Below, piece by piece: positions 1 to 49,182 of a stretch of DNA of 64,000 nt. The notes beneath the pieces were generated by a model. It did not search any database. It was not told the DNA's origin and was given only the letters and a program-made list of their open reading frames with translations. The DNA comes from Minisyncoccota bacterium (lineage in GTDB: Bacteria > Patescibacteriota > Minisyncoccia > UBA6257 > JAGOQP01), in assembly GCA_017991375.1 (NCBI GenBank), contig JAGOQP010000003.1, positions 17,525 to 81,524 of the forward strand. The letters run 5' to 3'. The position numbers and the translations under genes are program-made. Numbering within the stretch: position 1 is the first letter of the stretch; each line of letters starts with the position of its first letter.

Positions 1-151
1 GAGATAAAAGTAGTTGTTTTGCGTGAAACCAGGGCAGTCGAGTACGCGAAATAACCGCATAAAAGCTAACTTTTTTGACTAAATAGCATAGCCCTGGCGA
101 AATGTCAGGGTTATGCTTCGTGCGGTAAATGGGGATAACCGCGTATTTCCT

Positions 152-4539: not shown

Positions 4540-4720
4540 TCGGACTTTGGGTAGCAGTATTTGGAAATCGGATCTCAGATATAAAACATCTGATATCTGA
4601 AATCCGATATCTGATATCTGAAATCCGATATCTTGATTTGGGGTAGTAAGGCATGTGCGCTATCTTGACTTACGACTTTCTACTGACGACGTATGTTGTT
4701 GGTTGTTAGTCGTTGGTTGG
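4540..4720 (+). repeat. 23S helix-9 region expansion containing tandem 21-nt repeats and a GTTGGTTGTTAG motif
   Basis: TCTGATATCTGAAATCCGATA x2 at 4589-4630, then TGTTGTTGGTTGTTAGTCGTTGGTTGG. The segment sits between the conserved blocks corresponding to E. coli positions about 130-180. Confidence 0.7.
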
Positions 4721-5644
4721 GATGTGGAAGAGTTATAAATTTTTTAGCTAGCCAAACTCCTTGGAACAGGAGACCATAGAGGGCGAACGTCCCGTAGGCG
4801 AAAGCTAAAAAACTCTTTAGCATGTGATCTTGAGTACTTCGAAAAATGAATGTTTCGGAGGAATCTTCCCGCACTATCGGGAAAGGCTAAATACATTTAG
4901 TGATCGATAGCGAACGAGTACCGTGAGGGAAAGGTGAAAAGTAGGCCGGTGAGGCCGATGAAATAGAACCTGAAACCATATGTCTACAAGGAACGGAACC
5001 TCGCAAGAGGAACCGTGTGCCTATTGAAGAATGAACCAACGAGTTTATGTGTATCGCTCGTCTAAGTTCTACGGAACGGAGGCATAGCGAAAGCGAGTCT
5101 TAAAAGGGCGATTATGGCGGTACGCATAAGACCCGAAGCCGGGTGAGCTTGCCGTGGGCAGGATGAAGTTCGTCGAAAGGCGAATGGAGGTCCGAACCGG
5201 TTGGTTGTGCAAAACCTTCGGATGACCCATGGTAAGGAGTGAAAAGCTAATCGAACTCGGTAATAGCTGGTTCTCTCCGAAATAGCTTTAGGGCTAGCGT
5301 CCAGGATTAATGTATGGGGGGTAGAGCTACTGGTTGAGAGGTAAAGGGAGAAATCTCGGCCTTTCGGTCAAACTCCGAATACCCATGCAAATCGCCTGGG
5401 CAGTCAGAACGTGGGGGCTAAGCTCCATGTTCGCGAGGGGAACAGCCCAGATCGTTGTCTAAGGTCCCCAAATCTATGCTCAGTGTAAAAGGTAGTAGTT
5501 TGCCAGAGACAGGTAGGAGGTTGGCTTAGAGGTAGCCATCCTTTAAAGAGTGTGTAACAACTCACTACTAGACGGCCGACTGCGCCGAAAATTTACCGGG
5601 GCTTAAGCATAGTACCGAAGACACGAATGTCAGTGCATTACACA

Positions 5645-6045
5645 AAGTGTTTATAAAAGGTTTTTGGAAACAATGAGAAGGATGTAGAGCAGGAGAAGCT
5701 CAAACGAGAGAGCGCTCACATGGCATGTGAGAGGTTGAGGTTTGAATCCTCACTCCTGCGCCACACCTAAAAATCAATATCGAGAGAGGGGATGTGATCG
5801 TTTAATGGTAAGACGTTCGGCGATCCTTTAGGTCTGTGCTCCCGCGCGGATCAGAGGAATCATCTTCCTCAAGGAGGCCTCCAGGAAGAAGATCTAAGAT
5901 TTGCCGAATATGAGAGTTCGAAGCTCTCGAGCGTCCCCTCTCCCGATCAATAATTGCACACCGTCACGATTATTAGTGGCTAGCCGCACTCTAAAGGTTG
6001 CTAATCTGAATCTGGGTTGGCTCCTTCTCATTGTTTCCAAAAAAT
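5645..6045 (+). other. intervening sequence or intron-like insertion in 23S helix 45
   Basis: About 400 nt are inserted between conserved ..AGTACCGAAG.. and ..GGTAGGAGAGCATTCC... The insertion is closed by a perfect 19-nt inverted repeat, TTTGGAAACAATGAGAAGG at 5663-5681 and CCTTCTCATTGTTTCCAAA at 6021-6039. No credible ORF lies inside. Confidence 0.6.
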
Positions 6046-7554
6046 AAATATTTTGTGTAGTGCATTGACGTGGTAGGAGAGCATTCCAAATGCGCTGAAG
6101 CTTGACCCGTGAGGGCGAGTGGAGTGTTTGGAAGAGAGAATGTTGGTATGAGTAACCACAACCCGCCTGAGAACGGCGGGCCCCGAAAATCCAAGGTTTC
6201 CTTCGCAATGGAAATCAGCGAAGGGTGAGGCGGTCCTAAGGCGATGGCGAAAGCCGGAGCTAATGGATAGTCGGTTAATATTCCGACCCGCCAGTATGAT
6301 TCGATGGAGGGACAAGGTGTTGTACGCGGATCGTCTTAATGGTTTGACGTCCGTGACGCGAGAATCTCTGACTGGCAAATCCGTCAGAGTTCCTTTAATG
6401 GTGCATTCGAGCGTAGCGGCGATGTCTGCTTATGGCGGGCAAAGTTCGCGGAGCACATCTTCGAGAAAAACTTCTAAGGTTAATCATATTGGCACCGTAC
6501 CGTAATCCGACACAGGTGGGTGAGGCGAGAAGCCTCAGGGGAACGAGTGATTCATCCTTAAGGAACTCGGCACAAAAGCGGCCGTAACTTCGGGATAAGG
6601 CCTTCCAGCCCTTTTGGATAATGATCGTGTTATGCGCCGACAAGATAGTGGTATGCTAGTATTTGTCGTGTAACGTTATTATTATCCAAAAGAGCTGGAC
6701 GCAGCGAAAGTCTCTCGGGTGACTGTTTACTAAAGACACAGCTCCCTGCGAACTCGTAAGAGGATGTATAGGGGGTGACGCCTGACCGATGCGAGAAGGT
6801 TAACGGTGCCGGTTGTGCCGCAAGGTACAGCTGAGTGCCCGAAGCCCTCGTCAATGTCAGCGATAACTATAATCGTTCTAAGGTAGCGCAATTCCTTTCC
6901 GGGTAAGTTCCGGAGCGCACGAAAGGCGTAACGACCTGAGAACTGTCTCAAGGATGAGCTCGGTGAAAATGCGATTCCCGTGAAGACGCGGGGTACCTGC
7001 AGCGGGACGAGAAGACCCCAGGAGCTTTACTGTAACTTGATATTGATACTAGGGCTTGGATGCGTAGCGTAGTGGGCAGGCTTTGAAGCCATGCTTTCGG
7101 GCGTGGTGGAGCCGACGATGAAACACCCATCTTTCAAATTTTAGTATCTAACCTCGAGGGCAAAAACCGCGGGGGACAGTGTCTGGTGGGCAGTTTTAAT
7201 GGGGCGTTATCCTCCCAAAAAGTAACGGAGGAGTTTAAAGGTCAGCTTAGTCCGGATGGAAATCGGACTGGACGTGTAAAGGCGTATGCTGGCTTGACGG
7301 CAAGACACACAAGTCGCGCCGACGCGAAAGCGGAACTTAGTGACCCGACGGCAATGTCATGTGTTATTTATAATGCGTGATGCTTCATAGGAAGGCCGGA
7401 GACAACGGATAAAAGCTACCCTGGGGATAACAGGCTGGTGATGCCCGAGCGTCCATAGCGACGGCATCGCTCGGCACCTCGATGTCGGCTCACCCTAGCG
7501 CGGGGCTGGAGAAGGTCCCAAGCGTTTGGCTGTTCGCCAATTAAAAGGGTACGC

Positions 7555-7588
<34 letters not shown>

Positions 7589-7632
7589 CTCTATCTGCTG
7601 CAGGCGTTGACGCTTGAGGGAGGTTGGCTCTA

Positions 7633-8388
7633 GTAAGAAATTGCTACTTTCCCGAGTAATCGGGAATGATAATATGGCTAATAACGGTGAACTCTTAACT
7701 GTTCTGGTTCGTTGATAGCTACAACTACATGTCGGTCCGTTAGTTGTGGTACAATTTACTTGAGGACCAGTAAATTAATTAAGACAATACCGTGGGAAGT
7801 CGATCAAAAACAAATCTAGCTTACATAGCTGGTTTTCTTGATGGCGATGGAAGTCTAATGATGCAAATCAAAAAGCGTACTGACGGAATCAAAAAATTCC
7901 GATTTATGCTCACTATTTGTTTGTATCAAGATTCAAGACATGATAAACCTTTGTGGTGGATCAAAAAACAATTTGGTATCGGGTATATTTCCAAGAGGAA
8001 AGATCATATAACCGAATTGAGAATTAATGGTTTTAAGCAAGTCCGAACTATTCTTGAAGAATTACTTCCGTATATTCGCTTTAAAAGAAAGCAAGCGATT
8101 GAAATAATTAAAGCTGCGCGTATTCTTGAAAATAGAAAGGTTAGTGTCAGGAATACAAAAAAACTTGTTGATTGTATAATTACTATTCAAAAAAACAATT
8201 ATGCGACCAAAAGCAAACGCAGCAAAAGTGAGTTATATAGTGTTTTAGGTTTGACCCCGTAACGACTGATTTCCAATGATATATTGGAATGAAATAGAAA
8301 CTTTTTAGTTTTTATGATATGCCATCCCCCGGCGCTTTGTCGGGGTGAAGATATAGTCTGCGCACGTAGTGATACGTGATATCGTGAC
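7633..8388 (+). mobile_element. group I intron in the 23S rRNA
   Basis: About 755 nt interrupt the universally conserved CTAGTA|CGAGAGGACC sequence. The 23S resumes at ..GACGAGAGGACCGGG at about 8388. The insertion encodes a LAGLIDADG ORF. Confidence 0.75.
7792..8262 (+). CDS. LAGLIDADG homing endonuclease (intron-encoded)
   Basis: Single LAGLIDADG motif LAYIAGFLDGDGS near the N-terminus; 156 aa; located inside the 23S intron. Confidence 0.85.
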   Translation: MGSRSKTNLAYIAGFLDGDGSLMMQIKKRTDGIKKFRFMLTICLYQDSRHDKPLWWIKKQFGIGYISKRKDHITELRINGFKQVRTILEELLPYIRFKRKQAIEIIKAARILENRKVSVRNTKKLVDCIITIQKNNYATKSKRSKSELYSVLGLTP

Positions 8389-28267: not shown

Positions 28268-28293
28268 TGGGAAGGAATCATTAATCTTTCATC
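28268..28293. repeat. left inverted repeat of the pair bounding the 28.27-29.76 kb segment
   Basis: GGAATCATTAATCTTTCATCCTTAAT. Its reverse complement matches 29728-29760 across a 20-nt identical core TTAATCTTTCATCCTTAAT. Confidence 0.6.
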
Positions 28294-28498
28294 CTTAATT
28301 ATTGACCGCACAGTGCTTATCCTTAATCATTAATCGCACACTGTCGACCCATAACTCGTTCCACATTTATCATTCACGTTTCACTAAAAAGGCTATCCTT
28401 GACGGAAAGCTTTTTTTGTAGTACGTTTGTTTTTAGCATTCTGACAATGTGTCCCGAGTCAACAAACAAACCAGCCAGAGAAAGAGGGGAGAAACGCT

Positions 28499-29727: not shown

Positions 29728-29760
29728 CTACAATTAATGATTAAGGATGAAAGATTAACG
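29728..29760. repeat. right inverted repeat of the pair bounding the 28.27-29.76 kb segment
   Basis: CAATTAATGATTAAGGATGAAAGATTAACGATCC, whose reverse complement is GGATCGTTAATCTTTCATCCTTAATCATTAATTG. Confidence 0.6.
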
Positions 29761-29818
29761 ATCCCCCCTGTTTTTTTAGGTTAAGGATTAATAGTCAACG
29801 ATAAACTATTTCTCTCCG

Positions 29819-30867: not shown

Positions 30868-31758
30868 TTATGACAGAGATTTTCTTTTTATCCACTCAAT
30901 AAGAAAGAATACGCCGGTTATAACTGCCGGGCCCGCAATTAATACATACCAACTCCAATGACGATGAAGTCCCACCATCCATACGTAATAGAGCGCAAAA
31001 CCAAAAAACGCAATTGCGCCTACTAGAGGCTTTTTCCACGCAAATATAGTTGCGACAAGAACAACCAAAGGGATGATAAGATGGATAAGGCCGCCAAGAA
31101 TCATATTCCACCCGAGCGGTCCAGAAAACCCATCAAACGAGAATAAAAGCAAAAATCCGACAAACAATAGGGCTAGTATTCGTGGTGTCCAATAAAGTAA
31201 CGAATTATGCATAGTAGTGTGTGTAAGATGTGTGTGATGAGTATTGTCCCATTGAATGATTCGTTTGTTAAGTAGGGGAGAAAAATGATTTTTGTATCGT
31301 TTTTGGACTTCGGGTAATTTCCAATCTTCTCCAGTAATTTGTTTTCTGCACATAGGGGAATCGCACTGGCATTTCCATGACGATCGGTAGTCGCCATCAT
31401 CTTCCCAAAGAGCATAATCAGAAGTAATTTCCTCGCCGCTTGCGATAGCGCGCTTTGCGACGAGAGTGTATGTATCACTCATCCAGGTATTTGCGTCGCA
31501 GGAATGGTTGATAAAATAGCCTCGATCGACACCCCGATCTTCAACACTAAATACATCATCATCCCATTGTATTGCCAGTTTTCCACCAACCGTTTTTGCC
31601 TTTAGGGCTTCTTCTTTGTTGACGTAGTTTCCTCCCCACACAATTACTTTTTCTCCTGGGGCAATATTTTCAACAGCAAAAAGCCCCTTGCCGTATTTCT
31701 TGGTTTCTCGTAGTTCTATTTTTGGGCTTATCCAATCTTCTTGCGAGGGAGTAGTCAT
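30868..31758 (-). CDS. SET-domain protein fused to a C-terminal multi-TM domain
   Basis: N-terminal GKGLFAVENIAPGE...RGYFINHSCDANTW...EEITSDY plus post-SET CQCDSPMC; the C-terminal half has 4-5 hydrophobic helices. Confidence 0.7.
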   Translation of the reverse strand: MTTPSQEDWISPKIELRETKKYGKGLFAVENIAPGEKVIVWGGNYVNKEEALKAKTVGGKLAIQWDDDVFSVEDRGVDRGYFINHSCDANTWMSDTYTLVAKRAIASGEEITSDYALWEDDGDYRSSWKCQCDSPMCRKQITGEDWKLPEVQKRYKNHFSPLLNKRIIQWDNTHHTHLTHTTMHNSLLYWTPRILALLFVGFLLLFSFDGFSGPLGWNMILGGLIHLIIPLVVLVATIFAWKKPLVGAIAFFGFALYYVWMVGLHRHWSWYVLIAGPAVITGVFFLIEWIKRKSLS

Positions 31759-31817: not shown

Positions 31818-32756
31818 CTATCTTGGAAAATCTTCCATTTTCATCTCATCTTTTAATTGTTGCAATTTCTTTCGCATATCGCGATCATTAGGTTGCTCTT
31901 CTTTAATACTGTCTTGAAACTCATTCTTTTCGTCGCTATCCTCAGTAGATGGGGGATTGAGCATATTCCGCGCTTTTTCAAGAAGCTTATATTCTTTGGC
32001 GATTTCCATGCCTTTTTCATTATCAACTCCACCACACTCAAATTTGAAATTTCCAGAAAAACTAAATCCTATTCCAGAAGAACCTGCTGAACAAGATTTT
32101 TCAATTGAAAAATAATCAGGGGTGCTAAAAGCATCACCTAGAGAGAAAGCCGAGCAAAACGTTTTTGCGTCTCCTGTTGTTATGTCAACAGTCTCCTGAG
32201 TAAATCCCATCACAGTCCCTTTGCTTTTTGTCTCTATAACTACCCAATCATTCCTCTTTCTTTCTGGAGCGGGGTATATGAGCTTAGCATTATAATCAAT
32301 TCTAACTGGCGCGGTAAACGGGTTATAGTACTCAACCATCAACCCGCTCTCCTCTATGTCAACCGTCCCTTCTCCAATAGAGGCCTCTACATGCCCTGTG
32401 CCGGAGTAGGTATAACGGATTTTTCTCCCCAAAATAAATAATTTATTTTTTTCCTTATCAAAGACGTTTATATCCTCTGAAATATATTCAATAGAGCCTT
32501 TTTCATTACCAAGCACCGAGCTGGTGTATGGGCCTTTTATTTCTTCTTGGCTTTGACAAAAAGAGTACTTATCTTCATCGGCAAAATCTTCAAAACGCGA
32601 TTCTTCAAGTGTTTCGCGTGTTTCTTCATCTAATTGCAAATCGCCCTGTCTTCGAGTAGCTTCTTCAAAGCCAGAGTTATTCAAAAACACTCCAGTAGCA
32701 ATAGCGCCACCTACAACAACTATGGCTCCGCCAATAAGGAGGGTGTTTTTGCCCAT
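31818..32756 (-). CDS. membrane-anchored hypothetical protein
   Basis: N-terminal TM helix GGAIVVVGGAIATGVFL; acidic extracellular body; 312 aa. Confidence 0.55.
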   Translation of the reverse strand: MGKNTLLIGGAIVVVGGAIATGVFLNNSGFEEATRRQGDLQLDEETRETLEESRFEDFADEDKYSFCQSQEEIKGPYTSSVLGNEKGSIEYISEDINVFDKEKNKLFILGRKIRYTYSGTGHVEASIGEGTVDIEESGLMVEYYNPFTAPVRIDYNAKLIYPAPERKRNDWVVIETKSKGTVMGFTQETVDITTGDAKTFCSAFSLGDAFSTPDYFSIEKSCSAGSSGIGFSFSGNFKFECGGVDNEKGMEIAKEYKLLEKARNMLNPPSTEDSDEKNEFQDSIKEEQPNDRDMRKKLQQLKDEMKMEDFPR

Positions 32757-32759
32757 ATA

Positions 32760-33266
32760 TTACAATCCACAGGCGTTAGTAAAAGATTCGCAGTCAAAGG
32801 CGTCAATCATGCAATTAATTTTATTCGCGCTCCAAGATGAGCATTCTTTCATGCAAGAATTCAGACCATCCGCAAACAATGCCTCGGTTGCATTGGGAAC
32901 AAGGGTTAGGCATTTGCCAACATAACTTCCACATGCCGCCTCGCACCCGCTTGCATTCTTATCAACTGTTTTTGGAGCTATTGCTTCTGGAATTAACATG
33001 TCGGCAATCAAATCGGGTCGCGAAGTTATTTGTTCGCAACTTTTAGATTCTTTTAAATGCTTCTTTGATTCTTCGCTTACCTTTGAGCAGGCGTTATTGC
33101 AGGTTCTTTCATTTACCAACGAAGGACAAGTTTGGCTGGCTGCTTGGCAAACATCTTTGCACGCAAGATCGCCCTGACTTGCCGATTTATCTGTTGTAAG
33201 TAAAAGGACTCCACCTCCAACCACCACTACCGCCAACAAAGCTCCTAAAACAATTTTTATACTCAT
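32760..33266 (-). CDS. Cys-rich secreted or membrane-anchored protein
   Basis: N-terminal signal/anchor; about 18 Cys in 140 aa of mature region. Confidence 0.55.
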   Translation of the reverse strand: MSIKIVLGALLAVVVVGGGVLLLTTDKSASQGDLACKDVCQAASQTCPSLVNERTCNNACSKVSEESKKHLKESKSCEQITSRPDLIADMLIPEAIAPKTVDKNASGCEAACGSYVGKCLTLVPNATEALFADGLNSCMKECSSWSANKINCMIDAFDCESFTNACGL

Positions 33267-33613
33267 ATTTTTATATTAATTCTATCTATTCTACTAGTTT
33301 TTTGTGTTATTGGCGAATAAATAAGCTTCTATATACAGAAAATGAGTTACAATCACAAAATGTGATTCTTGGCGGTGACGATGCTCCGAAATTCGAATCA
33401 AAAAGGCGGCTCAAATTCAGGATTCTTGATAAAAGTATACAGGGATTACGAGCTATCTACAAAGTTCATCCAGAATGGTTTGGAATACCTAAACCGAAGT
33501 CTGATGGGGGTAAAAACGAGGTGGATTATTCTATATAAAATTTCCCCGATCCAGTGTACACACATCCCGCCCGCGAAGGGCAGAAGGGATCGCGGGCGGG
33601 GCTCCCTAGAGAT

Positions 33614-35572
33614 TCAAGATTTAATTCCAAAAATTCTTAACAATTCACTACCGACGACCACATTTGGTAAATGTTGTGTGACCTCTCCGAAAAAAGGGCT
33701 TGCTTGTGTTCGCGCACTTCTGCCTCGTTGTCCTCCCATTATTCTGACATTCAATTTCATAGCCACACCAAAATCTATATCTCTAAACGACGACAATATC
33801 AGCGTCTGTTTTGGGCGCGTAATTGCGACGAAGAAAAGTCTTTTTGCTTCAGCTCGTAGACGATCTAACTCCGCTGTCTGGTTCTCGTTGATCAATTTCC
33901 GTTCATCTTTGATGGTCGGCACAAGACCTGCTACACATCCGATTACAAAGACTACTTTTGACGTTAGTCCCTTAGACTTGTGTAAGCTCATTATCCGTAC
34001 ATATCCTGCATCATTTGTAACCTCTGGAGAGCGAATTCTATCTTGCAGTTTAGTAAAAAAGGTTTTCAAATCCATCTCCTCATCAATTTTTATAGTATCA
34101 ATTATGCTCAATAAAACTTCTATATCAGAGGGGTCAGTCCGATCAAATAACGATGCGACGATTTCAGTAACACTCTTGCCATCGAGACTCGTTTTGACAG
34201 ATTCAATATCATCATATCGTCTGACGATTTCGTCTGAGCGCGAAATAGCAATTGTTCCGGCTTTAATATCCAGGATGACTTCTTTTGGTGTCTTGTTTAG
34301 CTCCTCTGCTTTTAGGAGAATTTTTTCGTATGTTCCTTGCAAAACCGTCGGCATACCAAGAAGCGCGCGCAAAGCAATGCGGTCATCAGGGTAAGCAATA
34401 TAATTTAATAAAGAGTAAGCCCTTTTTGCCTTTTCCGTATCCAACGCTTCTTCTTGAAAAAATGTGTTTGAATTGATTGCGAAAGAAGATTTTAATTCAT
34501 CCCTAAGCGCATAGCCCAACTGACGGCGCGGAGAAAGTATCAGTATGTCTTCGGCTCGTACTTCGCGTGTAGCATCTGAAATCATAGCGCTTACAATTTT
34601 TGCTGTTCCTTTTGTTTCCTCATCGATGTTGTTCCACTGGACTGCATGAACCTCACCTTCGCCATTTTCAGGATGTTCACCGAGTTTCTTAGGGTGTTCG
34701 CCTAAAAAGTAACCCATCAATTCATTTGCCAGGCGGACTACTTTTTTCGGGCATCGACGACAAATCTGAAGACTTATATCCTCAAGGGGATTGTGAGTCG
34801 TCGGAAATTCTATAATTCCGTCGGGGTGAGCGTGTTTAAAACTGTAGATGGACTGATCGTCGTCGCCGATAACCAAAAGCTCTCCATTGCTTGCAAATAG
34901 ATCAATAAGCGATTGCTCCGCTTTGTTAAGGTCTTGGTATTCATCAACCAAAATATAGTCGTACTGATTTAATTCTTGAGCGGTAGGATTGTTTCTTAGA
35001 TAATCGTATGTGATTGGCACAAGTTCACCAATAAGCATCGCTCTATGAATACTCAGCCAACGCAAAAGTCGAGTCTTAAATCTTGCATCATCAGCAGATT
35101 GAATTACTCCCGGGGTGTCTTGCTGTTGTCGTGCAAACGCACTTTCGTACGCTAATAGTAATTTTTCAGTATTTCTTTTTCCATTAAAATCTCCCTTGAG
35201 ATCTTCCAAAAGAAAATTCGTTTCAAAATCCATCAAAGGGCGCGGAGTTCGATTCGTTATTTCTAGCACTTGCTGTCTTCGAAGTATTTCAAAACAAAGA
35301 CTATGCAATGTGCGTGCGCGAACATTTTCCGCGCCAGGGGTCTGAGCCGCCGCCAAGTCTTTCTTTAGTGCATCAGCCGCCACATTCGTGAAAGTAACAA
35401 CGAGTATGCGAGATGGGTCTTTTCCTTCCTCCAAAAGTCGCATTACTTTCCTTTGCAAAGCATAACTTTTCCCCGTTCCGGGTCCGGCGAGAACACGCAT
35501 CGCCGATCCTTGATGGCTCGCGATTCGTAAGTGATTTCCGTCAATGTCCTGATTCCATTTAGGCATAGTCAT
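33614..35572 (-). CDS. UvrD/Rep-family (SF1) DNA helicase
   Basis: GPGTGKS (Walker A), VDEYQD, SLHKSKGL, VAITRPK motifs. The start overlaps the upstream hsdMS stop by 14 nt. Confidence 0.85.
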   Translation of the reverse strand: MTMPKWNQDIDGNHLRIASHQGSAMRVLAGPGTGKSYALQRKVMRLLEEGKDPSRILVVTFTNVAADALKKDLAAAQTPGAENVRARTLHSLCFEILRRQQVLEITNRTPRPLMDFETNFLLEDLKGDFNGKRNTEKLLLAYESAFARQQQDTPGVIQSADDARFKTRLLRWLSIHRAMLIGELVPITYDYLRNNPTAQELNQYDYILVDEYQDLNKAEQSLIDLFASNGELLVIGDDDQSIYSFKHAHPDGIIEFPTTHNPLEDISLQICRRCPKKVVRLANELMGYFLGEHPKKLGEHPENGEGEVHAVQWNNIDEETKGTAKIVSAMISDATREVRAEDILILSPRRQLGYALRDELKSSFAINSNTFFQEEALDTEKAKRAYSLLNYIAYPDDRIALRALLGMPTVLQGTYEKILLKAEELNKTPKEVILDIKAGTIAISRSDEIVRRYDDIESVKTSLDGKSVTEIVASLFDRTDPSDIEVLLSIIDTIKIDEEMDLKTFFTKLQDRIRSPEVTNDAGYVRIMSLHKSKGLTSKVVFVIGCVAGLVPTIKDERKLINENQTAELDRLRAEAKRLFFVAITRPKQTLILSSFRDIDFGVAMKLNVRIMGGQRGRSARTQASPFFGEVTQHLPNVVVGSELLRIFGIKS

Positions 35573-38027
35573 TCAAAACTCCGGAGATTTTCTTTTCCAT
35601 CGCTTCAATCAGATTGCGATTTGAGGCGATAATTTCTTCCTCTTTTTCCATTTCCTCGACCATTTGTTCTTGGACTTCGAGAGGCGGGAGCGGGATTTTT
35701 AGATCTTTGATTTGCTTAATCGTGTACTGTTGTAATGTTGCACCTCCTTGCTCCGTCTTAATCTTTCCTTGAATATCTTCAGAGTTTAAAATGTGCAAAA
35801 GAAATCTCGGCAAAATCTGCTCCTTTGATCTAAGCCAAGCCAATTGAGAATTAAGATTTGCGGAATCATACTCTTTATCAATTATTGCCACTTTCCCAAT
35901 TTCTCCACGATTAGAAAAAATAACATCATTCGTTTTGAGATGTCCCTTCTTTAGTTTGTTATGTTTTTCTTCGCTTATGAATTTCATGTCCGTAGAATCA
36001 ATTTTCAAATTCTGAATATTTGTCGCACGAATAAAAGGTACTCCTTGGTTGACCATTTCAGATGATTTTGGATAGTTCGAAGAATGGTTTCCGTCTCCTA
36101 CTTCACAAATGTCACCAATTTTTGCCATGGGAATATCACCTAATTTTCTAAGCGACTGGCCAAAATATCGTCTCTCTCTCTCTAGATTTTCGATGATTGC
36201 TTTCGCGTGCTCGATGGCGTTCTGCTTGACCTCAATCCGCTCAACGATTTCTTTCTGCACCTCAATCGGCGGGAGCGGGATTTTTGTATCCTTTAGTTTT
36301 GAGAAATGCCTCTTGTAACCGTCTGATTCAATCGGTTTTAATTTAAGATAGAAGTATAGATACTTAGGTAGAAGTTCGTCATTTGTTTTGATTATCTTAA
36401 TTCCATCAGCCCCTTGAGCAAACGGCTGTTCAAGATATTTAACCGCACAGGTATGATCACCAAAAATCACAAGAGGATTATTTGCATTGACTAGCGCAGA
36501 CTCATCGTCAGTCCATCCCGAAATTTCTTCTTGTGATTGATCAATAATCGGATATTTACCATTATTACCAAATTCACTTTTTTGAATCTTTGTTGGTGGA
36601 GTAATTGTCTCTATCAACTCACCAATTTTTCTAACAGGCCACTTCTGATTTTTCTGCTCGCCAAGATTATCCAGCCGATATCGTTCCGCCGAAAGGTTAT
36701 AGTCGCCACTTTGCGCTATTTGCTCTTTTGATATTTCATACGCAAAAAGACTATTTTCCTGAAGCCACGGGTTTTTCATTCCCGTTTCAATCGCTATTCT
36801 TTGCCCCTTGAGCACTTTTGTCGCGTCTACTTCGTTATCGGGGCGGACGAGATCATTTCTATCAATCGGTCGGCGCTGTGCGCCAAGATCAAAGCCGTCA
36901 TTCAAAACCCGCACGAATAAAATCTTATCCGTCTTTTTTGCGACCGTATTATCAAAAAAGAGAATACTCGTTTTTACGCCCGCATACGGATTGAACACGC
37001 CCTGCGGAAGCGACACGACTGCAAACAAGCCGTCCTCAACCAGAATCTTTCGAAGCTGTTTATACGCTCCAGACGACTGGAAAATAATGCCCTCCGGCAC
37101 GATGATACCGGCGCGTCCATTTGGGCGCAGATGCTCCTTGATGTAATCAACGAAAAGCACCTCCGCGCGGTTTGCCTGCACGGAAAATCGCTTGTGCGGG
37201 CGAATACCGCCTTGTGGAGACATAAACGGCGGATTCGCCATAATGACATCAAAACTTTCATCCCATTTCTCATCGCTTGAGAGCGTGTCGTATTCAAAAA
37301 TCTTTGGCTCGGCGAAGCCATGCAAATACATATTCACTTTTGAGAGCTTTACCATGTCGGGCGAAATATCGTAGCCGACAAGATTATTCATCAATTTTTT
37401 CTTTTCGTCCGGAGTGAGGGGTTTGTCTTTTTGCTGTTTGAGAATGTTTTTGTATGCACTGATGAGGAAGCCAGCCGTACCGCACGCAGGGTCGAGAATC
37501 GTGTCGCCCTTTTTCGGCTCAATAACATCAACGATAAAGTCGATGATATGCCGAGGCGTGCGGAATTGCCCCGCATCGCCCTGCGAGCCGAGAATCGAGA
37601 GGAGATATTCAAAAGCGTTGCCGAGTTCTTCGCTGTGGTTGTAAGTGAAGCCGTTTATTTCTTTCAAAAAGAGCGTGAGCGTTTCGGGGCTTCGATACGG
37701 CAGAAAAGCATCTTTGAAAATATCGCGGAACAATTGCGGGATGTGCGGGTTTTGCGACATTCGCGCGACGGCTTCGCCGTACAGCTCCAATCGCTCATGT
37801 CCGCCAAGCTTTGGGTCAAGTAATTTCGTCCATGCGTACTTTTGAAAACCGTTGGTGAAAAATCGCGCCTTGCCACCAAGCTCGATAGCTTCCTTGTCCA
37901 TATCATCCATAAATTTATAGATGAGTGCGGTCGTGATTTGCTCAACCTGTGCTTTTGGGTCAGGGACTTTACCGACAAGAATTTGCCGAGCGGAATCTAT
38001 TTTTCGTTTTGTTTCTTGGGTAAGCAT
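35559..38027 (-). CDS. type I restriction-modification fused methyltransferase-specificity subunit (HsdM-HsdS fusion)
   Basis: N-terminal HsdM: FRTPRHIIDFIV, DPACGTAGFL, ANPPF motif IV. The C-terminal roughly 380 aa has two TRD-like regions, each ending with the HsdS conserved repeat (IPLPPIEVQKEIVERIE and IPLPPLEVQEQMVEEME). Confidence 0.8.
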   Translation of the reverse strand: MLTQETKRKIDSARQILVGKVPDPKAQVEQITTALIYKFMDDMDKEAIELGGKARFFTNGFQKYAWTKLLDPKLGGHERLELYGEAVARMSQNPHIPQLFRDIFKDAFLPYRSPETLTLFLKEINGFTYNHSEELGNAFEYLLSILGSQGDAGQFRTPRHIIDFIVDVIEPKKGDTILDPACGTAGFLISAYKNILKQQKDKPLTPDEKKKLMNNLVGYDISPDMVKLSKVNMYLHGFAEPKIFEYDTLSSDEKWDESFDVIMANPPFMSPQGGIRPHKRFSVQANRAEVLFVDYIKEHLRPNGRAGIIVPEGIIFQSSGAYKQLRKILVEDGLFAVVSLPQGVFNPYAGVKTSILFFDNTVAKKTDKILFVRVLNDGFDLGAQRRPIDRNDLVRPDNEVDATKVLKGQRIAIETGMKNPWLQENSLFAYEISKEQIAQSGDYNLSAERYRLDNLGEQKNQKWPVRKIGELIETITPPTKIQKSEFGNNGKYPIIDQSQEEISGWTDDESALVNANNPLVIFGDHTCAVKYLEQPFAQGADGIKIIKTNDELLPKYLYFYLKLKPIESDGYKRHFSKLKDTKIPLPPIEVQKEIVERIEVKQNAIEHAKAIIENLERERRYFGQSLRKLGDIPMAKIGDICEVGDGNHSSNYPKSSEMVNQGVPFIRATNIQNLKIDSTDMKFISEEKHNKLKKGHLKTNDVIFSNRGEIGKVAIIDKEYDSANLNSQLAWLRSKEQILPRFLLHILNSEDIQGKIKTEQGGATLQQYTIKQIKDLKIPLPPLEVQEQMVEEMEKEEEIIASNRNLIEAMEKKISGVLNDYA

Positions 38028-38030
38028 AAA

Positions 38031-40586
38031 TTACATGAATGTATTCACGGAGACATAGTCTTTCACATATTCGGGAATAACTTCGCGGAAGCCGTTCAGT
38101 TCTTTGTAGTCCGCCATTGAAACTTTCGGATTTGTTGCGAATCGACCATATTCCTTTGACTCCACAATTTCCCGAATCTCGTTGTCGGTGATGTATGCCT
38201 TGAGGAAATTCTTGATCGGGTAGTAATACTTGCTGTCCGGCCTGTAGATGGAGATAAACTTTTCAAACTCCTCCTCAAGAAGCTCGTCCTTATTCTTGAA
38301 TTTATCAAGGCGACCGAATACGCGATCTATGACTTCCCGCAAAGAAAGGCGGCGGTCTACTTTTGCAGATTTTCGCAGTTTCTCTAGGTTGTAGAAGTCC
38401 TCGGGCTTGTCGAAGATTTCAGTCTTCACATACTCCTCGATGGCTTGCATGTCGCCCTGCACGTATTTTTCTTTTACGAAACTGTCGGACTTGAGTACAT
38501 CCTCAAATTTCTCAAAAAGTTTGCGATCTACTTTCATTCCCTCAACACCAATCGCTTTTTCGTTGAAAGTCTTTAGCGGGTCAGGGGTTCCGATAACTAC
38601 TTCATCAATATCAATCGGCTCTCCGCCTGTTCCACCAGTGCCTACTTTCGGCACTTTTAGAACTTCGTCGTAATTAAACTTTTCCTCGAAATACTCGCAG
38701 TTGGCGAAAAAGTCGAACAGTTTGAATTTATCTTTTTCTGTCTTTGTTTCCTCCGCCTCTCCGTCCTCACGATGTTCAAATGAGAAATTGAATTTGCGAG
38801 TACCACGCCCTTTGATCTGTATGAAGTCAGTCGGCGAGAAAATCGGGCGCATAAGCCCAAGGTTCAAAATATCTTGGCAGTCATAGCCGGTCGTCATCAT
38901 GCCGACAGTAACGCAAACGCGCGTCTTGCTTGATTTATATCCATCAAGCCACTTCGTGTAGCCGTTCAGGTTGTTGTTTGCAAAATTGATAGTGAATTGC
39001 TGTGCGTCGGGAATATTTGAAGTAACTTGCACGGCAAAATCCGAATTGTATTTGCCCGGCCACATTTTGTCCGCAAGCTGGTTGAGCATTTGCGTGATTT
39101 TTGTCGCGTGTTTTTGGCTTACGCAATAGATAATGCCTTTGCCAATCTCTCCGCTTACTGGATCGGGGAGCGCGTTTTTGAGAAATGTTTCGCAGAAAAT
39201 CGTGTTTGTCTTGTCGGAGAAAAATTTCCTCTCAAAATCCGTTTGGTAAAAAGTCTGTTCCTCTTTGCCTTCCTCGGTGTCAATAATGAGCGAATATCCC
39301 TCGTCAGAGAGAAGTTGCGTAGTGATTTCCGTGCGCGCGTCAGCAACGACCGGATTGACCAAGAAGCCGTCTTTTACGCCATCGAGTAAACTGTAGCGGA
39401 AAGTCGGCTCGCCGTTTTCACAGCCGAAAGTTGTGTAAGTATCAAGGAGTTGGCGCCGCTCCCATGATCGCGGGTCTTTCTCATTCAATTTTGCAGGGTC
39501 TATGCCTTTAAGATAATTTCTAGGAGTAGCGGTGAGTCCGAGCTTGTAGCCGACAAAGTATTCAAAGACCGCACGGCTATTTCCACCGATTGAGCGATGG
39601 GCTTCGTCAGAAATGATGAGGTCAAAATCCGTTGGAGTGAAAAGTTTTTGGTATTTGTTGCCGGATGAAAGACTTTGTATCGTAGAAACGACAATCTCCG
39701 CCTTGCGCCAATCGTCTCGATTTTCTTTATAGATAACGGTCGTGTAATCCTTGGAAAGCCACTTTTTGAAATTTTTCGCCGCCTGATCTTCAAGCTCGAT
39801 GCGGTCTACGAGAAAGAGAATCCGTTTTGCATTTCCGGTCTTGAGAAAGAGCTTGATAACGGCGGCGCAGGTAAGGGTCTTTCCAGTTCCCGTCGCCATC
39901 TCAAAGAGATAGCGATCTTTTCCGTTTTGCGCCCACGCTTGGAGTGCCTCGATAGCTTTTAGCTGATACGGGCGCAAAAATTTCAAGTCGTATTCCTTGA
40001 TCAGTTCTGATTTCTGCTTTTCATCTGTCCAGCGAGGGTCTTTTTGATAGACAGGGTTTTGGGTGAGTGCGATAAAATCGGGCGCGAGTTTTTCTTCGTT
40101 CAGCCTTTTTGAGTCCGGCTTGAAGGATTCAATATGCTTGAGTGATTCCGGCGTAGGGAAAACGGTAATAATTGACGGATTGCCTCGTTCCAAATCCCAA
40201 AAATAATGAATGTTGCCGTTCGAGAGAATAATGAATCGAACATTTTGAGACTGTGCATACCGGCGAGCTTGCTCTTTGCCGTTGAGTGGGTCTTTATCTT
40301 CTGATTTTGCTTCTAGCACGACATACGGAAAACCCTTTTCATCGAGCAAAAGAAAGTCGATAAAACCGTCCTTCGTTTTATCAAAATCGTTTCCAAATTC
40401 ATCAACGGCGGATTTTGTGAGCTTCACATTGTTTTCCAAAACAATATTCGCCACGCCGTTTTCATCGTCAAAAAACCTCCAGCCGGATACTTGAAGCAAG
40501 TTGTTTATTTTTATTCTTGATTTTGCTTCTTTTTGCATATAATTGGCTAAATAATCCTTATTTTGCTTGGGTTCAAACTTGGACAT
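38031..40586 (-). CDS. hsdR: type I restriction enzyme R subunit (HsdR)
   Basis: N-terminal PD-(D/E)xK core DFLLLDEKGFPYVVLEAK; SF2 helicase motifs MATGTGKT and IISDEAHRS; 851 aa. Confidence 0.85.
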   Translation of the reverse strand: MSKFEPKQNKDYLANYMQKEAKSRIKINNLLQVSGWRFFDDENGVANIVLENNVKLTKSAVDEFGNDFDKTKDGFIDFLLLDEKGFPYVVLEAKSEDKDPLNGKEQARRYAQSQNVRFIILSNGNIHYFWDLERGNPSIITVFPTPESLKHIESFKPDSKRLNEEKLAPDFIALTQNPVYQKDPRWTDEKQKSELIKEYDLKFLRPYQLKAIEALQAWAQNGKDRYLFEMATGTGKTLTCAAVIKLFLKTGNAKRILFLVDRIELEDQAAKNFKKWLSKDYTTVIYKENRDDWRKAEIVVSTIQSLSSGNKYQKLFTPTDFDLIISDEAHRSIGGNSRAVFEYFVGYKLGLTATPRNYLKGIDPAKLNEKDPRSWERRQLLDTYTTFGCENGEPTFRYSLLDGVKDGFLVNPVVADARTEITTQLLSDEGYSLIIDTEEGKEEQTFYQTDFERKFFSDKTNTIFCETFLKNALPDPVSGEIGKGIIYCVSQKHATKITQMLNQLADKMWPGKYNSDFAVQVTSNIPDAQQFTINFANNNLNGYTKWLDGYKSSKTRVCVTVGMMTTGYDCQDILNLGLMRPIFSPTDFIQIKGRGTRKFNFSFEHREDGEAEETKTEKDKFKLFDFFANCEYFEEKFNYDEVLKVPKVGTGGTGGEPIDIDEVVIGTPDPLKTFNEKAIGVEGMKVDRKLFEKFEDVLKSDSFVKEKYVQGDMQAIEEYVKTEIFDKPEDFYNLEKLRKSAKVDRRLSLREVIDRVFGRLDKFKNKDELLEEEFEKFISIYRPDSKYYYPIKNFLKAYITDNEIREIVESKEYGRFATNPKVSMADYKELNGFREVIPEYVKDYVSVNTFM

Positions 40587-40589
40587 CTG

Positions 40590-40607
40590 GCGGAGAGGGA
40601 GGGATTC
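40590..40607. repeat. 18-nt direct duplicate of the tRNA-Ser 3' end
   Basis: GCGGAGAGGGAGGGATTC is identical to 40782-40799, the 3' terminal portion of the tRNA. It lies 4 nt from the hsdR start. Confidence 0.85.
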
Positions 40608-40782
40608 TCCTTCGACTCTAGTATACGCCGTCGCGTATACTAGGTCTAGGCACCAACTCGCTGTATAATCTGCTGATTACACATGCTCCGTTGTTCGAAA
40701 TCCCCACAAGAGCCAAGCAGTTGGCTCTTTCCCTCTTCGTGCATAAAATCATCTCGCTTAATAACGAGAAATTTTATATGCG

Positions 40783-40869
40783 CGGAGAGGGAGGGATTCG
40801 AACCCTCGGACCGGTTTCCCGGTCAACATCTTAGCAGGATGCTGCTATCGACCGCTCAGCCACCTCTCC
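40783..40869 (-). tRNA. tRNA-Ser (anticodon GCT), class II with long variable arm, no encoded CCA
   Basis: Acceptor GGAGAGG/CCTCTCC, anticodon loop CTGCTAA, variable arm TGACCGGGAAACCGGTC, T-loop TTCGAAT. Confidence 0.8.
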
Positions 40870-42724: not shown

Positions 42725-42907
42725 AACACAAACGGTTCGTTACACCAAGACCCCACAAGGGGTCTTTTGTTAGTTGATGATCAATAACTGACGACAAACA
42801 ATAAAAACAAAGAGGGGTGATACCGCAGTTGGTATAAGTCATTAGTTGGTGGTTAACTTAACGCGGTCTTGCTCCTTTCTTTTTTTTCTGGTACAGTAGT
42901 GGGCACG

Positions 42908-44380
42908 ATGCTTACTCAAGATACAAGCGCACAGAGCGGCCCACGACCTCGTCCGCCGATTGTGGTGGTTATGGGGCACGTAGATCACGGCAAGACCACA
43001 TTGCTTGATTTTTTGCGTAAGAGCCGTGTTGCCGAGCGAGAAGCTGGCGGCATTACTCAGTCAATTGGCGCATACGAAGTTGAACGCAACGGAAAAAGAA
43101 TCACTTTTATTGATACGCCAGGGCATCAAGCATTTACTCACATGCGTCAGCGCGGAGCACAGGTTGCCGATGTTGCTATCCTTGTTGTCGCCGCAGATGA
43201 CGGAGTACAACCACAAACAGAAGAGGCAATTTCAATTTTGCAAAATTCAGGGACTCCTTTTGTGGTGGCGATTACCAAAATAGATAAAAATAATGCTGAC
43301 ATAGAAAAAACAAAACAAGATTTGCTCGCGCACGGAGTGTATTTGGAGGGATTTGGAGGAGAGGTGCCGTGGCACGGGATTTCGTCAAAAACAGGTGAGG
43401 GTGTGGATGAACTTCTTGACCTGGTGTTGTTGTTGGAAGAAATGTCTGGATCAACATGTAATCCAGCCGCGCCCGCGAAAGGATTTGTATTGGAATCAAA
43501 AGTAGATAGCCGTCGAGGCATTATCGCGGTTGTCATTGTCAAAGAGGGGACGCTTCGTGTTGGTAGTACTATCGCGACATCGTCGGCGTGTGGGAAAATA
43601 AAAATCTTAGAGGATTTTACTGGTAAACGAGTTGACGAACTTACACCATGCGCGCCCGCGCTCGTGGTGGGGTTTGAGCAATTGCCGGCTATTGGAGAAG
43701 AATATACCGCCGGAGAGTTGGAGATCGAAGCATACAGAAACGCTCTGGTAAAAAAAGAGGACGCGCATACGTTACCAATGCAACAAAACAATGAAGCGGC
43801 CGCAGAAGATGTTATTTCGGTATTCGTAAAAGCGGATGTCTCAGGATCGCTGGAGGCACTCGCACAAGTTATTGCTAGCATGACAACCGATGGCGCTACG
43901 TTTCGTGTCTTGGGCCAGGGGGTGGGTGATATTAGTGACAGTGATATTAAAGACGCAAAAGCAATGAACGCGATTATCGCCGGTTTTAATGTAAAGTTGG
44001 CAAAGTCAGCCGAAAATTTAGCCCGAGCCCATGAAATAAAAATAATTACTTCAAACATAATCTATCGTATCGTTGAGGCGCTCGAAGATATAGCAAAAAA
44101 TCGCGATCGAAAAGAGATCCTGGGCAAATTAGAAGTACTCGCGCTTTTTTCTAAGAAGGATAAAAAACAACTTATAGGAGGACGTGTTACCGAAGGAATA
44201 TTAACGCTCAACCAAAAATTTCACATTGTTCGAGGTGATGAATCATTAGGCATGGGCCGTATTACTAATCTTCAAATGGGAAAAAAGCCGGCCACAAAAG
44301 TTGAAAACTGCGAATGTGGTCTTATGATTGAATCACCGATTGATATTGCCGTCGGAGATATTCTGGTGGTGGAAAAGTAA
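42908..44380 (+). CDS. infB: translation initiation factor IF-2 (short form, G domain to C-terminus)
   Basis: RPPIVVVMGHVDHGKTTLLD, DTPGH, TKIDK; IF2 C-terminal beta-barrels; followed by rbfA. Confidence 0.88.
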   Translation: MLTQDTSAQSGPRPRPPIVVVMGHVDHGKTTLLDFLRKSRVAEREAGGITQSIGAYEVERNGKRITFIDTPGHQAFTHMRQRGAQVADVAILVVAADDGVQPQTEEAISILQNSGTPFVVAITKIDKNNADIEKTKQDLLAHGVYLEGFGGEVPWHGISSKTGEGVDELLDLVLLLEEMSGSTCNPAAPAKGFVLESKVDSRRGIIAVVIVKEGTLRVGSTIATSSACGKIKILEDFTGKRVDELTPCAPALVVGFEQLPAIGEEYTAGELEIEAYRNALVKKEDAHTLPMQQNNEAAAEDVISVFVKADVSGSLEALAQVIASMTTDGATFRVLGQGVGDISDSDIKDAKAMNAIIAGFNVKLAKSAENLARAHEIKIITSNIIYRIVEALEDIAKNRDRKEILGKLEVLALFSKKDKKQLIGGRVTEGILTLNQKFHIVRGDESLGMGRITNLQMGKKPATKVENCECGLMIESPIDIAVGDILVVEK

Positions 44381-47900: not shown

Positions 47901-48237
47901 TGATACTAAGCGAAATCGAACTATAAGCCCCCGTGGCGCCTGCCTGCTGTAGGCAGGGAAGATATGGAAGAATATTTGACATAGAAAAGCAACCAGGTTT
48001 ATAATATTAATCATGTTCAAGGCAATATTGAGCATCTAAGGCCGGAGTCGGGGATCCTCAAGATTATAAGAGTAAATTTCTGAGATCTGTGGTCACTCAA
48101 AAGATGCTTATAAATCACAGTTCTAAAAATAGTTGCCGGAGTCGGAACCCCTCATAAAAAACATCTTGATAATTAAGGTGTTTTTTGTTTTTGATGTGGA
48201 TAATGGAGGAATATTATTGTACACTGAACATATTCTC

Positions 48238-48891
48238 ATGTGGTATTTATACTTGGATGAAAGCGGTGATTTAGGTTTTGATTTTGTTAATAAAAAACCA
48301 ACAAAATTCTTCACCGTAACTATTCTAGCTGTTAGCTCTCGAGATGCTAACAGAAAGTTATTTAATGCTGCGAAAAAAACATTAAATCAAAAACTCAATA
48401 ACAAAAAACATAGGAAAAGAATCATTTCTGAGCTTAAAGGAACTGGAACCACAATAATAATCAAAAAATATTTTTTTGAAAAAGTTAAGAACACAAAATT
48501 TGGCCTCTATTCTATCACTTTGAACAAAAAACGAGTGTATGCAACTCTGGCAGAAAATAAATCAAGAGTTTATAACTATATTTCAAGACAGGTTTTAGAC
48601 CGCATACCTTTTGAAAAATATGACTCTGATAGAGTAGAGCTAATCATAGATAAGTCTATGGCAAAACCAGAAATCTCAGAGTTTAATTCTTATATTAGGC
48701 GCCAACTAGAAGGAAGAATCTCCCCAAACACGCCGTTGGATATATATCACCGCTTGTCTCATGAAAATTTTGGATTGCAAATTGTCGATTTGTTTTGCTG
48801 GGGCATTTTTGAAAAGTACGAAAAACCAAAAAACGATGATTGGTTTAACATTTTTAAAGAAAAAGTACTGCTTGACGAGCAGTACCTATAA
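48238..48891 (+). CDS. DUF3800-family protein
   Basis: N-terminal MWYLYLDESGDLGFDF matches the DUF3800 YxDESG signature. The locus is very AT-rich and Lys/Asn-rich and looks foreign. Confidence 0.6.
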   Translation: MWYLYLDESGDLGFDFVNKKPTKFFTVTILAVSSRDANRKLFNAAKKTLNQKLNNKKHRKRIISELKGTGTTIIIKKYFFEKVKNTKFGLYSITLNKKRVYATLAENKSRVYNYISRQVLDRIPFEKYDSDRVELIIDKSMAKPEISEFNSYIRRQLEGRISPNTPLDIYHRLSHENFGLQIVDLFCWGIFEKYEKPKNDDWFNIFKEKVLLDEQYL

Positions 48892-49182
48892 AGACCCCTT
48901 GCGGGGGAGCTGCCTTATAGATTTGTAGTGTCCACACTATAGCCAACCGATGGATGGGAACATGTGGAACAATCTATAAAGGGCTAACGCTCAAATATAG
49001 ATTAGCATAAATTCTATAAAAAACAACAAATTTTGTGGATAAGTTAAAAACGAATCCTAATATGAGCTAGGTTTTATTAGGTTTTTATAAATAGGATAGT
49101 ATTTACAGATATATAGATAATTATTGACTCCACTCTCAAAAAGAGGCACTATTTTAATATACGGGCCAAAAGCCCTATTTCT

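Follow-up and report, generated by a model that had tools for sequence, protein, structure and literature searches.

Classical Type I restriction-modification (R-M) systems have separate modification (M, HsdM) and specificity (S, HsdS) subunits, which assemble as M2S1. The Type IMS arrangement, in which HsdM is fused to an HsdS with one or two target recognition domains (TRDs) and HsdR is separate, was engineered from EcoKI in 2012 (PMC3510504). In vivo, the engineered EcoKI fusions need only HsdR to restrict and modify, although in vitro the MSFusion protein needed extra free HsdM, and Type IMS was proposed as an evolutionary intermediate between Types IA/IC and IB (PMC3510504). A second engineered fusion is MSfus, from S. 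aureus CC398-1 (PMC6158711). In AloI and CjeI, the stoichiometry of one methyltransferase (MTase) to two TRDs has been noted as a puzzle (PMC3874165). In addition, independent defence genes are known to accumulate in slots within and after R-M operons (guilt-by-embedding, 10.1101/2024.01.29.577857). Here we analyse a stretch of 64,000 nt from a Minisyncoccota bacterium (contig JAGOQP010000003.1, positions 17,525 to 81,524; hereafter the window), which carries an operon of three genes: hsdR, an hsdM-hsdS fusion (hsdMS) and a gene for a UvrD/PcrA-like superfamily 1 (SF1) helicase. Identical proteins are filed at NCBI under Candidatus Pacebacteria, from a metagenome-assembled genome. The fused chain departs from the classical organization, since its M and S are not separate subunits. 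Our interpretation, to which we give an even chance, is that hsdR and hsdMS form a natural Type IMS system, and that the helicase is a mobile protein, not a subunit, that would act downstream of restriction on cut DNA.

Domains were called by Pfam, PADLOC and NCBIfam profile searches. In the fusion, Pfam detected N6_Mtase at residues 133-451 (6e-54), followed by two Methylase_S stretches. The PADLOC models gave the same division: MTase_I (PDLC03021) spans residues 1-459 (324 bits, 3e-97) and Specificity_I spans residues 457-789; the PADLOC model REase_MTase_IIG also matches the S part. No nuclease domain was matched in the fusion, whose residues 1-459 are fully covered by the Type I HsdM model. 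Every motif quoted in the initial annotation of this locus (FRTPR, DPACGTAGFL, NPPF and two copies of KIPLPP(I/L)EVQ) was found in the translation. Judging by its S-adenosylmethionine-binding and NPPF catalytic motifs, the M module is a gamma-class N6-adenine MTase. The join is tail to head: the HsdM C-terminus, GDYNLSAERYR, is followed after ∼10 aa by the usual HsdS N-terminus, KWPVRKIGE, and each of the two variable TRDs is trailed by the conserved KIPLPP(I/L)EVQ helix region. At the DNA level, the S repeats appear as a 59-nt direct repeat (36240..36298 and 35655..35713), 75% identical and 585 nt apart.

The search for full-length homologues with the same fusion yielded more than 100. The best 120 matches to the 822-aa query are all strong, mostly 790-850 aa long, and share N6_Mtase and Methylase_S; they come from Patescibacteria, Omnitrophota, Marinimicrobia and unclassified metagenomes, and a 620-660-aa single-TRD variant is also among the homologues listed. 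A frameshift or assembly artefact was rejected because the 822-codon open reading frame (ORF) is uninterrupted and the family of proteins fused in the same way is large. Hence, the fusion that the initial annotation had proposed is genuine. Its remark that such fusions are uncommon holds for the searchable papers, in which they are rarely described, but not for sequence data, in which HsdR plus fused M-S form a large family. Our search of that literature returned no description of a natural M-S fusion, only engineered constructs, and "hsdMS" in Pseudomonas and Staphylococcus papers stands for two genes, not for a fusion.

The surroundings of the fused gene were analysed in 80 metagenomic loci (designated, as are all loci below, by L and a number) whose hsdMS products share 45-96% identity with that of the window; 75 of them include upstream sequence and 52 at least 2 kb of downstream sequence. 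A homologue of HsdR (50-94% identical) is encoded directly upstream of the fusion in 72 of the 75 loci, with a median gap of ∼9 nt, which argues that hsdR and hsdMS are a conserved two-gene unit; 13 of these 72 loci carry one or more extra genes between the two. The TRD columns vary across the fusion homologues and the remainder of the chain is conserved, as expected for an R-M system in use. Among the genes found between hsdR and hsdMS are KilA-N genes (L102:3965-4789, L130:5321-6160 and L166:4739-5548). In two loci (L161:4749-5849 and L162:2685-3785) an hsdMS 96% identical to that of the window is cut off after about residue 346-366, and unrelated small genes and a gene of 546 aa come next; the system was probably inactivated here by an insertion.

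HsdR combines an HSDR_N/HSDR_N_2 nuclease of the PD-(D/E)xK type with a ResIII/DEAD superfamily 2 (SF2) motor, as detected by Pfam, PADLOC and NCBIfam, and the motifs D…EAK, MATGTGKT, DEAH, TATP and QIKGRGTR were all seen. The best NCBIfam match is restrict_EcoAI, with 226.8 bits, which does not reach the equivalog cut-off of 550. By these scores the protein is EcoAI/Type IB-like, i.e., related to the EcoAI family and not an equivalog. Since nearly all HsdR homologues align from about residue 17, and the orthologue of locus L219 starts exactly there, the shorter of the two forms in Table 1 is probably the true one; nucleotide homology with L219 begins at 40542.

The coordinates of the three genes and of the features flanking them are collected in Table 1. 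The three tightly packed ORFs and their operon structure are as the initial annotation described them. The hsdR stop is separated from the hsdMS start by 3 nt, the hsdMS and helicase genes overlap, and the three genes are presumably co-transcribed. The 14-nt overlap reported at first has to be shortened to 8 nt, because the conserved helicase start is the second ATG; this start agrees with the NCBI record (650 aa) and with L219.

Table 1. Features of the R-MS-helicase locus, in window coordinates.
Feature	Position	Strand	Remarks
hsdR	38031..40586	-	longest ORF 851 aa; likely start ATG 40538, giving 835 aa
hsdMS, whole fusion	35559..38027	-	822 aa, single uninterrupted ORF
hsdMS methyltransferase module, ∼residues 1-455	36663..38027	-	PADLOC MTase_I, motifs, invariant alignment columns
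hsdMS specificity module, ∼residues 456-822 and stop codon	35559..36662	-	two TRDs, Methylase_S
UvrD/PcrA/Rep-like SF1A helicase	33614..35572	-	652 aa from first ATG; conserved start 35566, giving 650 aa
tRNA-Ser (anticodon GCT)	40782..40869	-	ARAGORN; Rfam tRNA 56 bits; immediately upstream of operon
18-nt copy GAATCCCTCCCTCTCCGC	40590..40607	-	exact match to tRNA-Ser 3' end 40782..40799
hairpin CCCGCCCGCGA...TCGCGGGCGGG	33566..33600	-	perfect 11-bp G+C stem, 13 nt past helicase stop

The helicase consists of the Pfam domains UvrD-helicase, AAA_19 and UvrD_C, with no nuclease or other added domain. Its motifs are intact (GPGTGKS, DEYQD, GDDDQSIY, CRRCP, HKSKGL and VAITRPK), and 21 diverse homologues show no variation in Walker A, DEYQD or motifs III, V and VI. 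Motif IV reads CRRCP, where UvrD and PcrA have QNYRS. The AlphaFold2 model (pLDDT 83) was compared by Foldseek and matched UvrD and PcrA with TM scores of 0.77-0.79 over ∼650 residues, i.e., over the full length; as modelled, the protein is a complete UvrD fold (1A/1B/2A/2B, motifs I-VI) with no extra domain. Its scores against the NCBIfam equivalogs are low: 167 bits for PcrA (cut-off 911), 113 bits for the UvrD models (cut-offs 965 for NF008743 and 1144 for TIGR01075) and 146 bits for Rep (cut-off 951). Since the 650-aa chain ends soon after the last motif, no space is left for the C-terminal extension that the ∼720-aa UvrD/PcrA equivalogs have. The strongest PADLOC matches are RTasHel (2.5e-51), which spans just the N-terminal two thirds, and the GajB models (1e-49, full length); the similarity to PcrA (E ∼1e-30) exceeds that to the solved GajB structures (∼1e-6). 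Four cysteines of the helicase (C91, C269, C272 and C544; gene 33614..35566) are invariant or nearly so across phyla, and may form a metal site. In two loci (L003:17432-18430 and L074:13284-14300), related genes of the RVT_1 reverse-transcriptase family follow the helicase gene at a distance of 1.4-5.5 kb.

The closest relatives of the helicase (58-100% identical) form a clade in the candidate phyla radiation (CPR), which we sampled in 12 distinct contexts. In 7 of the 12 the helicase gene (HEL) closes an R-M operon, and six kinds of operon are represented. The Type IMS order R-MS-HEL of the window recurs, behind an upstream helix-turn-helix gene, in L219/L220, on at least 14 contigs. The Type I operon of L003 has HsdR with EcoEI_R_C, M, S and HEL, and the Type IC-like operon of L218 has M, an AAA_15 ATPase, a 378-aa protein with no Pfam hit, HsdR with EcoR124_C, and HEL. 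In L001/L002, HEL follows MmeI/Eco57I-type MTases and a T5orf172-ResIII gene. Two operons are of Type II: a C5 MTase, a BpuJI-like restriction endonuclease (REase), a second C5 MTase and HEL in L221, and an N6_N4 MTase, a DpnII REase, a HicB-like protein and HEL in L225. No R-M system adjoins the helicase in L005, L222, L223, L224 and L226; in L005 it stands next to Gabija and Wadjet.

Two comparisons within this clade bear on the history of the locus. The window and L219 share ∼79% nucleotide identity over the entire operon, with the two TRDs as the sole gaps, and their proteins are 89% (HsdR), 90% (HEL) and 65% (MS, overall) identical. Operon-wide homology with different TRDs suggests that R-MS-HEL persisted as a unit while its specificity changed. 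With L001/L002, the nucleotide identity is higher, 92%, and is confined to the interval from 85 nt before the helicase ATG through its stop; the encoded helicases are 94% identical to that of the window. Identity limited to the cassette in this way points to recent horizontal movement of the helicase. Just in front of it, L001 (9918-10000) and L002 (5103-5185) retain a 30-codon remnant of the hsdMS 3' end (…EKEQEVINANKQLIEIMEQKFSNILNDYA, then the stop codon) in the same overlapping register. Hence, the helicase of L001/L002 was at one time attached to an hsdMS gene, and the upstream R-M module was later replaced.

Outside this clade, full-length relatives of ∼645 aa, 36-45% identical to the helicase, occur in many bacterial phyla and in Methanophagales, with a patchy spread and no conserved synteny in any clade. 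We called and clustered the ORFs of 80 helicase genome loci, 69 of which carry a full-length gene, and annotated the recurrent neighbours. The sole recurrent contexts of the family are restriction-type operons, and R-M-like core genes lie within 6 kb of the helicase in 23 of the 69 full-length loci. Among the Type I contexts, the order is M-S-HEL-R in L007, L012 and L017; additional genes, including GmrSD, are inserted in L011, L040 and L067, and L025, L052 and L070 are further examples. In Hma systems ("DUF499-centred BREX-related") the order HmaA (SNF2/NOV_C helicase)-HEL-DUF1156 MTase-DUF499 is found in L009, L014, L015 and L018. Four further loci (L016, L021, L032 and L072) have Hma core genes (c1, and also c5 in L021 and L072) no more than 6 kb from HEL but arranged differently, and in L077 and L080 Hma core genes are found near truncated copies of HEL. 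The Type III context HEL-Mod-Res is found in L071 and L029, and Mod (L016, L054) and Res (L016) lie within ∼4 kb of HEL in other arrangements. The junctions between HEL and the R-M genes often overlap by a few bases, and a Pfam census of 83 immediate same-strand neighbours was headed by DUF1156, ResIII, NOV_C, Methylase_S, T1RH-like_C and HSDR_N, all of them R-M families. Recurrently nested in, or attached to, operons of different types, the helicase would by its gene neighbourhood rank as an embedded or appended defence gene.

In a rough neighbour-joining tree of the family, some clades are linked to R-M genes, and one large clade, mostly from alphaproteobacteria, is not. At the non-R-M loci the nearest genes are miscellaneous, with no recurrent partner beyond a few recombinases, transposases and OLD-like ATPases. 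No family member was found among the phage genomes of INPHARED, which gave just generic PcrA-level matches of ∼25% identity; two were found in IMG/VR viral contigs and one on a plasmid in PLSDB. A phage or plasmid origin of the helicase was rejected on this near absence. Our literature search found no paper that describes the family or links it to R-M.

Contrary to the initial annotation, the helicase is not a dedicated third member of this R-M type; the slot after hsdMS is hypervariable, and the helicase family is found on at least six other kinds of R-M-like operon. In 44 of the 52 loci with downstream sequence a same-strand ORF begins within 300 nt after hsdMS; clustering divided these ORFs into at least 34 unrelated groups. 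The occupants include OLD-type ATPase-TOPRIM, STAND NTPase, DUF4145, RadC, AAA_13 and HerA-like proteins. The commonest is an unannotated family of ∼243 aa (cluster m2) with no Pfam hit, which comes straight after hsdMS at 6 of the 52 loci and has members in ∼14 of all 80 (e.g., L103:5281-6012, L104:5486-6217 and L124:10506-11252). In two loci (L099:3527-5503 and L111:7235-9196) a different UvrD-like helicase, 22% identical to that of the window, stands right after hsdMS, in what looks like an independent recruitment of an SF1 helicase to the slot. The closest R-MS relatives of the window (L097, L161 and L162, with HsdR 94% identical) lack its helicase. In the survey of gene neighbourhoods that the initial annotation proposed, R-MS-HEL does recur, in L219/L220, but none of the 52 loci carries the helicase family, from which we conclude that the R-M system does not need it. 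The label of accessory module, also offered at first, is a fair one, and R-MS-HEL reads as a Type IMS system with a candidate accessory defence gene, not as a new class of system.

The sequence of events that we envisage is as follows. The MS protein would methylate a bipartite site, as its family membership implies, and HsdR would translocate on and cut unmodified DNA in the manner of classical Type I enzymes. The helicase, with a presumed 3'-5' polarity, would then load on the nicks or ends that the nuclease leaves in incoming DNA and unwind them. Breaks unwound in this way would not be re-ligated or repaired and would be passed to exonucleases, so that restriction would become irreversible. 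Because the partners of the helicase include Type II enzymes, its role should be generic to restriction. The notion that all its partners are ATP-dependent translocating systems was dropped once the Type II partners (BpuJI-like, DpnII-like) appeared. A wider proposal, which we advance tentatively and consider possible rather than probable, is that the whole ∼645-aa UvrD-like family is an unrecognised portable restriction booster, or break processor, serving Type I, II, III, IMS and Hma systems. Such a booster would act on the nicks and ends made by restriction, or on stalled restriction complexes, and make cleavage irreversible; if the proposal is true, it might be especially useful where end-processing nucleases are few, e.g., in CPR bacteria.

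Several observations weigh against a helicase that works downstream of a Type IMS enzyme. The helicase has neither an effector nor a sensor domain, and we infer its activities and role, like those of the other enzymes, from sequence. The family follows hsdMS in none of the 52 R-MS loci with at least 2 kb downstream, and about two thirds of its members in genomes are not beside recognisable R-M genes. In 6 of the 12 CPR contexts (L001, L003, L005, L222, L224 and L226) a serine recombinase gene lies within ∼4 kb, and this proximity also fits a mobile-element role for the helicase. As for the fusion, one MTase to two TRDs in a single chain is a puzzling stoichiometry, and the engineered EcoKI MSFusion depended on free HsdM in vitro.

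It is also conceivable, although somewhat unlikely in our estimation, that the helicase is a second line of defence in its own right, whose gene nests in R-M operons as PrrC, RloC, GmrSD/BrxU and OLD-type ATPases do, and that it does not process restriction products; it might sense DNA ends and burn (d)NTPs in the manner of GajB, or be triggered by inhibition of the R-M system. R-M operon slots are known to gather independent defence genes (10.1101/2024.01.29.577857), and the slot after hsdMS also holds the OLD ATPase-TOPRIM, STAND NTPase, AAA_13, HerA-like, DUF4145 and RadC proteins listed above. The helicase is found alone as well, e.g., beside Gabija and Wadjet in L005, and in non-R-M contexts, and its top PADLOC matches are the GajB models and the reverse transcriptase-associated helicase of DRT systems. 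However, the PADLOC models scanned hold no solitary, effector-less UvrD-like helicase as an established system, the similarity to the solved GajB is weak when set against that to PcrA, and the linkage of the family is specific to R-M-type operons, not to defence genes in general. The PADLOC run suggested in the initial annotation bore out the Type I MTase and specificity assignments of the fusion but gave no GajA-like partner adjacent to the helicase in the window. Gabija itself was rejected: no AAA_15/TOPRIM protein flanks the helicase, and its neighbours have no PADLOC match.

Less probable, and in our opinion unlikely, is that the helicase serves the maintenance or replication of an integrative element, e.g., one moved by a large serine recombinase, with the R-M system as co-travelling cargo. 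The recombinases within ∼4 kb in the six CPR contexts are of the large serine type in all except L222, where the gene encodes a shorter resolvase, and they suggest that CPR genomes harbour a family of such elements; L003 and L226 have genes for ParB-N6_N4 MTase fusions alongside them. At non-R-M loci, the genes closest to the helicase include those for resolvases, integrases and transposases. The cassette-limited identity with L001 agrees with such a role. In the window, an att-like repeat of tRNA-Ser adjoins the operon: the 18-nt copy stands just in front of hsdR, 174 nt downstream of the tRNA gene (two matches, repeat family D15, against 0 expected in shuffles), and looks like the att-site footprint of an integrated or decayed element. 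It lies within positions 40587..40607, which the initial annotation had counted in the operon span and which are noncoding. No third copy was found in the window at up to 3 mismatches, nor any recombinase, relaxase or Rep gene near the operon (ORF 42869..44380 encodes IF-2). Moreover, in other phyla HEL stands between Type I or Hma core genes with overlapping codons, a position not expected of an element backbone gene, the family is almost absent from IMG/VR (2), phage genomes (0) and plasmids (1), and defence cargo commonly clusters beside integrases.

That the helicase is an integral third subunit, and R-MS-HEL a distinct new restriction type that needs an SF1 helicase, is very unlikely. The tight packing with its 8-nt overlap and the conservation of the three-gene operon at ∼79% nucleotide identity, with swapped TRDs and on at least 14 contigs, are what such a type would show. 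Against it, the R-MS pair stands without this helicase both at the 52 sampled loci, in whose slot at least 34 unrelated families alternate, and in the relatives whose HsdR is 94% identical, and the same helicase clade serves six other R-M architectures.

Finally, a housekeeping PcrA/UvrD standing beside the R-M system by chance is scarcely credible: the protein is a complete, motif-intact UvrD-fold helicase, CPR genomes are reduced with divergent proteins, and our inspection covered the window and not the whole genome, but the equivalog scores fall far short of their cut-offs, the C-terminal extension has no room, the nearest relatives (65-94% identical) are found next to R-M systems and recombinases, in unrelated contexts, and the homology with L001 is cassette-limited with no conserved synteny in any clade, all of which led us to reject it and to side with the initial annotation in treating the helicase as an island-type gene.

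Returning to the reading of a Type IMS system with a helicase acting on cut DNA, Type IMS, known in searchable papers just as an engineered form, is a widespread natural family with a conserved HsdR. If the helicase co-operates with restriction, it would be a new accessory layer on the oldest known defence systems, and if it defends alone, a defence gene of a new minimal kind, made up of a helicase only. In both cases a test would be cheap, since the module is one gene with clear catalytic residues.

As for the rest of the window, composition is unremarkable. The transcription unit probably ends at the hairpin of Table 1, although its fold z-score is not significant and it has no T-run; the next ORF lies 348 nt beyond and has its own promoter-like site. 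Two ORFs considered as partners of the helicase, 32760..33266 and 31818..32756, were rejected, since they have no Pfam, PADLOC or NCBIfam match and lie beyond the hairpin and the 348-nt gap; the product of the first resembles membrane or secreted proteins. About 1.9 kb past the end of the helicase gene, 30868..31758 (minus strand) encodes a SET-domain and DUF7670 protein; SET domains are unusual in bacteria. The 23S rRNA gene (4264..7650) has a ∼420-nt insertion (∼5640..6060) at model position 1218, which holds a tRNA-like element (ARAGORN tRNA-Ala GGC, 5689..5763; Rfam tRNA 53.5 bits). A DUF3800-V RNA (RF02964, 45 bits; 48902..48997, minus strand) adjoins the ORF of a DUF3800 protein (48133..48891). 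A 30-nt inverted repeat, 90% complementary (28274..28334), and a perfect 16-nt inverted repeat (29733..29765) flank ∼1.4 kb with three small ORFs without family matches; the segment may be a small mobile element.

Comparison with described systems places the two parts of the operon separately. The helicase resembles GajB in being a UvrD-family SF1 protein in a defence context; unlike in Gabija, it has no GajA (OLD ATPase-TOPRIM) partner, it is closer to PcrA than to the solved GajB, and it is 22% identical, patchily, to the GajB encoded beside its L005 homologue. With RTasHel, the UvrD-like helicase of the methylase-reverse transcriptase fusion UG35, it shares a partnership with a methyltransferase-containing system, but the window operon has no reverse transcriptase. 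Like PrrC, RloC, BrxU/GmrSD and HEC-01..09, it is an exchangeable gene nested in or appended to Type I, BREX and Hma-type operons, although none of those described embedded systems is a solitary UvrD-like helicase. The linkage of such a helicase to R-M is new with respect to the literature found, and fits the known nesting of defence genes in R-M-type operons.

The fusion, in turn, has one MTase module followed by two TRDs in a single chain, as in the single-chain Type IIB/IIG enzymes AloI and CjeI. Those enzymes have an N-terminal nuclease in the chain and no motor, whereas here both the nuclease and the motor are in the separate HsdR. Type ISP enzymes (LlaGI, LlaBIII) are also fusions of Type I-like modules, but join an Mrr-like nuclease, a motor, an MTase and a single TRD in one polypeptide. 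The Type ISP-like split architecture considered in the initial annotation does not apply, since the S part has two TRDs with Type I repeats and HsdR is a separate protein with its PD-ExK nuclease and SF2 motor. Type IB (EcoAI) is the nearest to the window in HsdR, with the HSDR_N nuclease, the SF2 motor and the best NCBIfam match, but the match falls short of the equivalog cut-off and, unlike in Type IB, M and S form one chain. The definition that fits is that of Type IMS: as in the engineered proteins, HsdM runs through the same simple tail-to-head join into an HsdS with two TRDs, and HsdR is a protein of its own. It differs from the engineered form in being natural, in belonging to a large family, and in an HsdR that is EcoAI (IB)-like instead of IA. 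An IB-like HsdR together with a fused MS is consistent with a route from IA/IC through IMS to IB, without being proof of it, and the natural Type IMS family with such HsdR proteins offers test cases both for this route and for the puzzle of one MTase with two TRDs.

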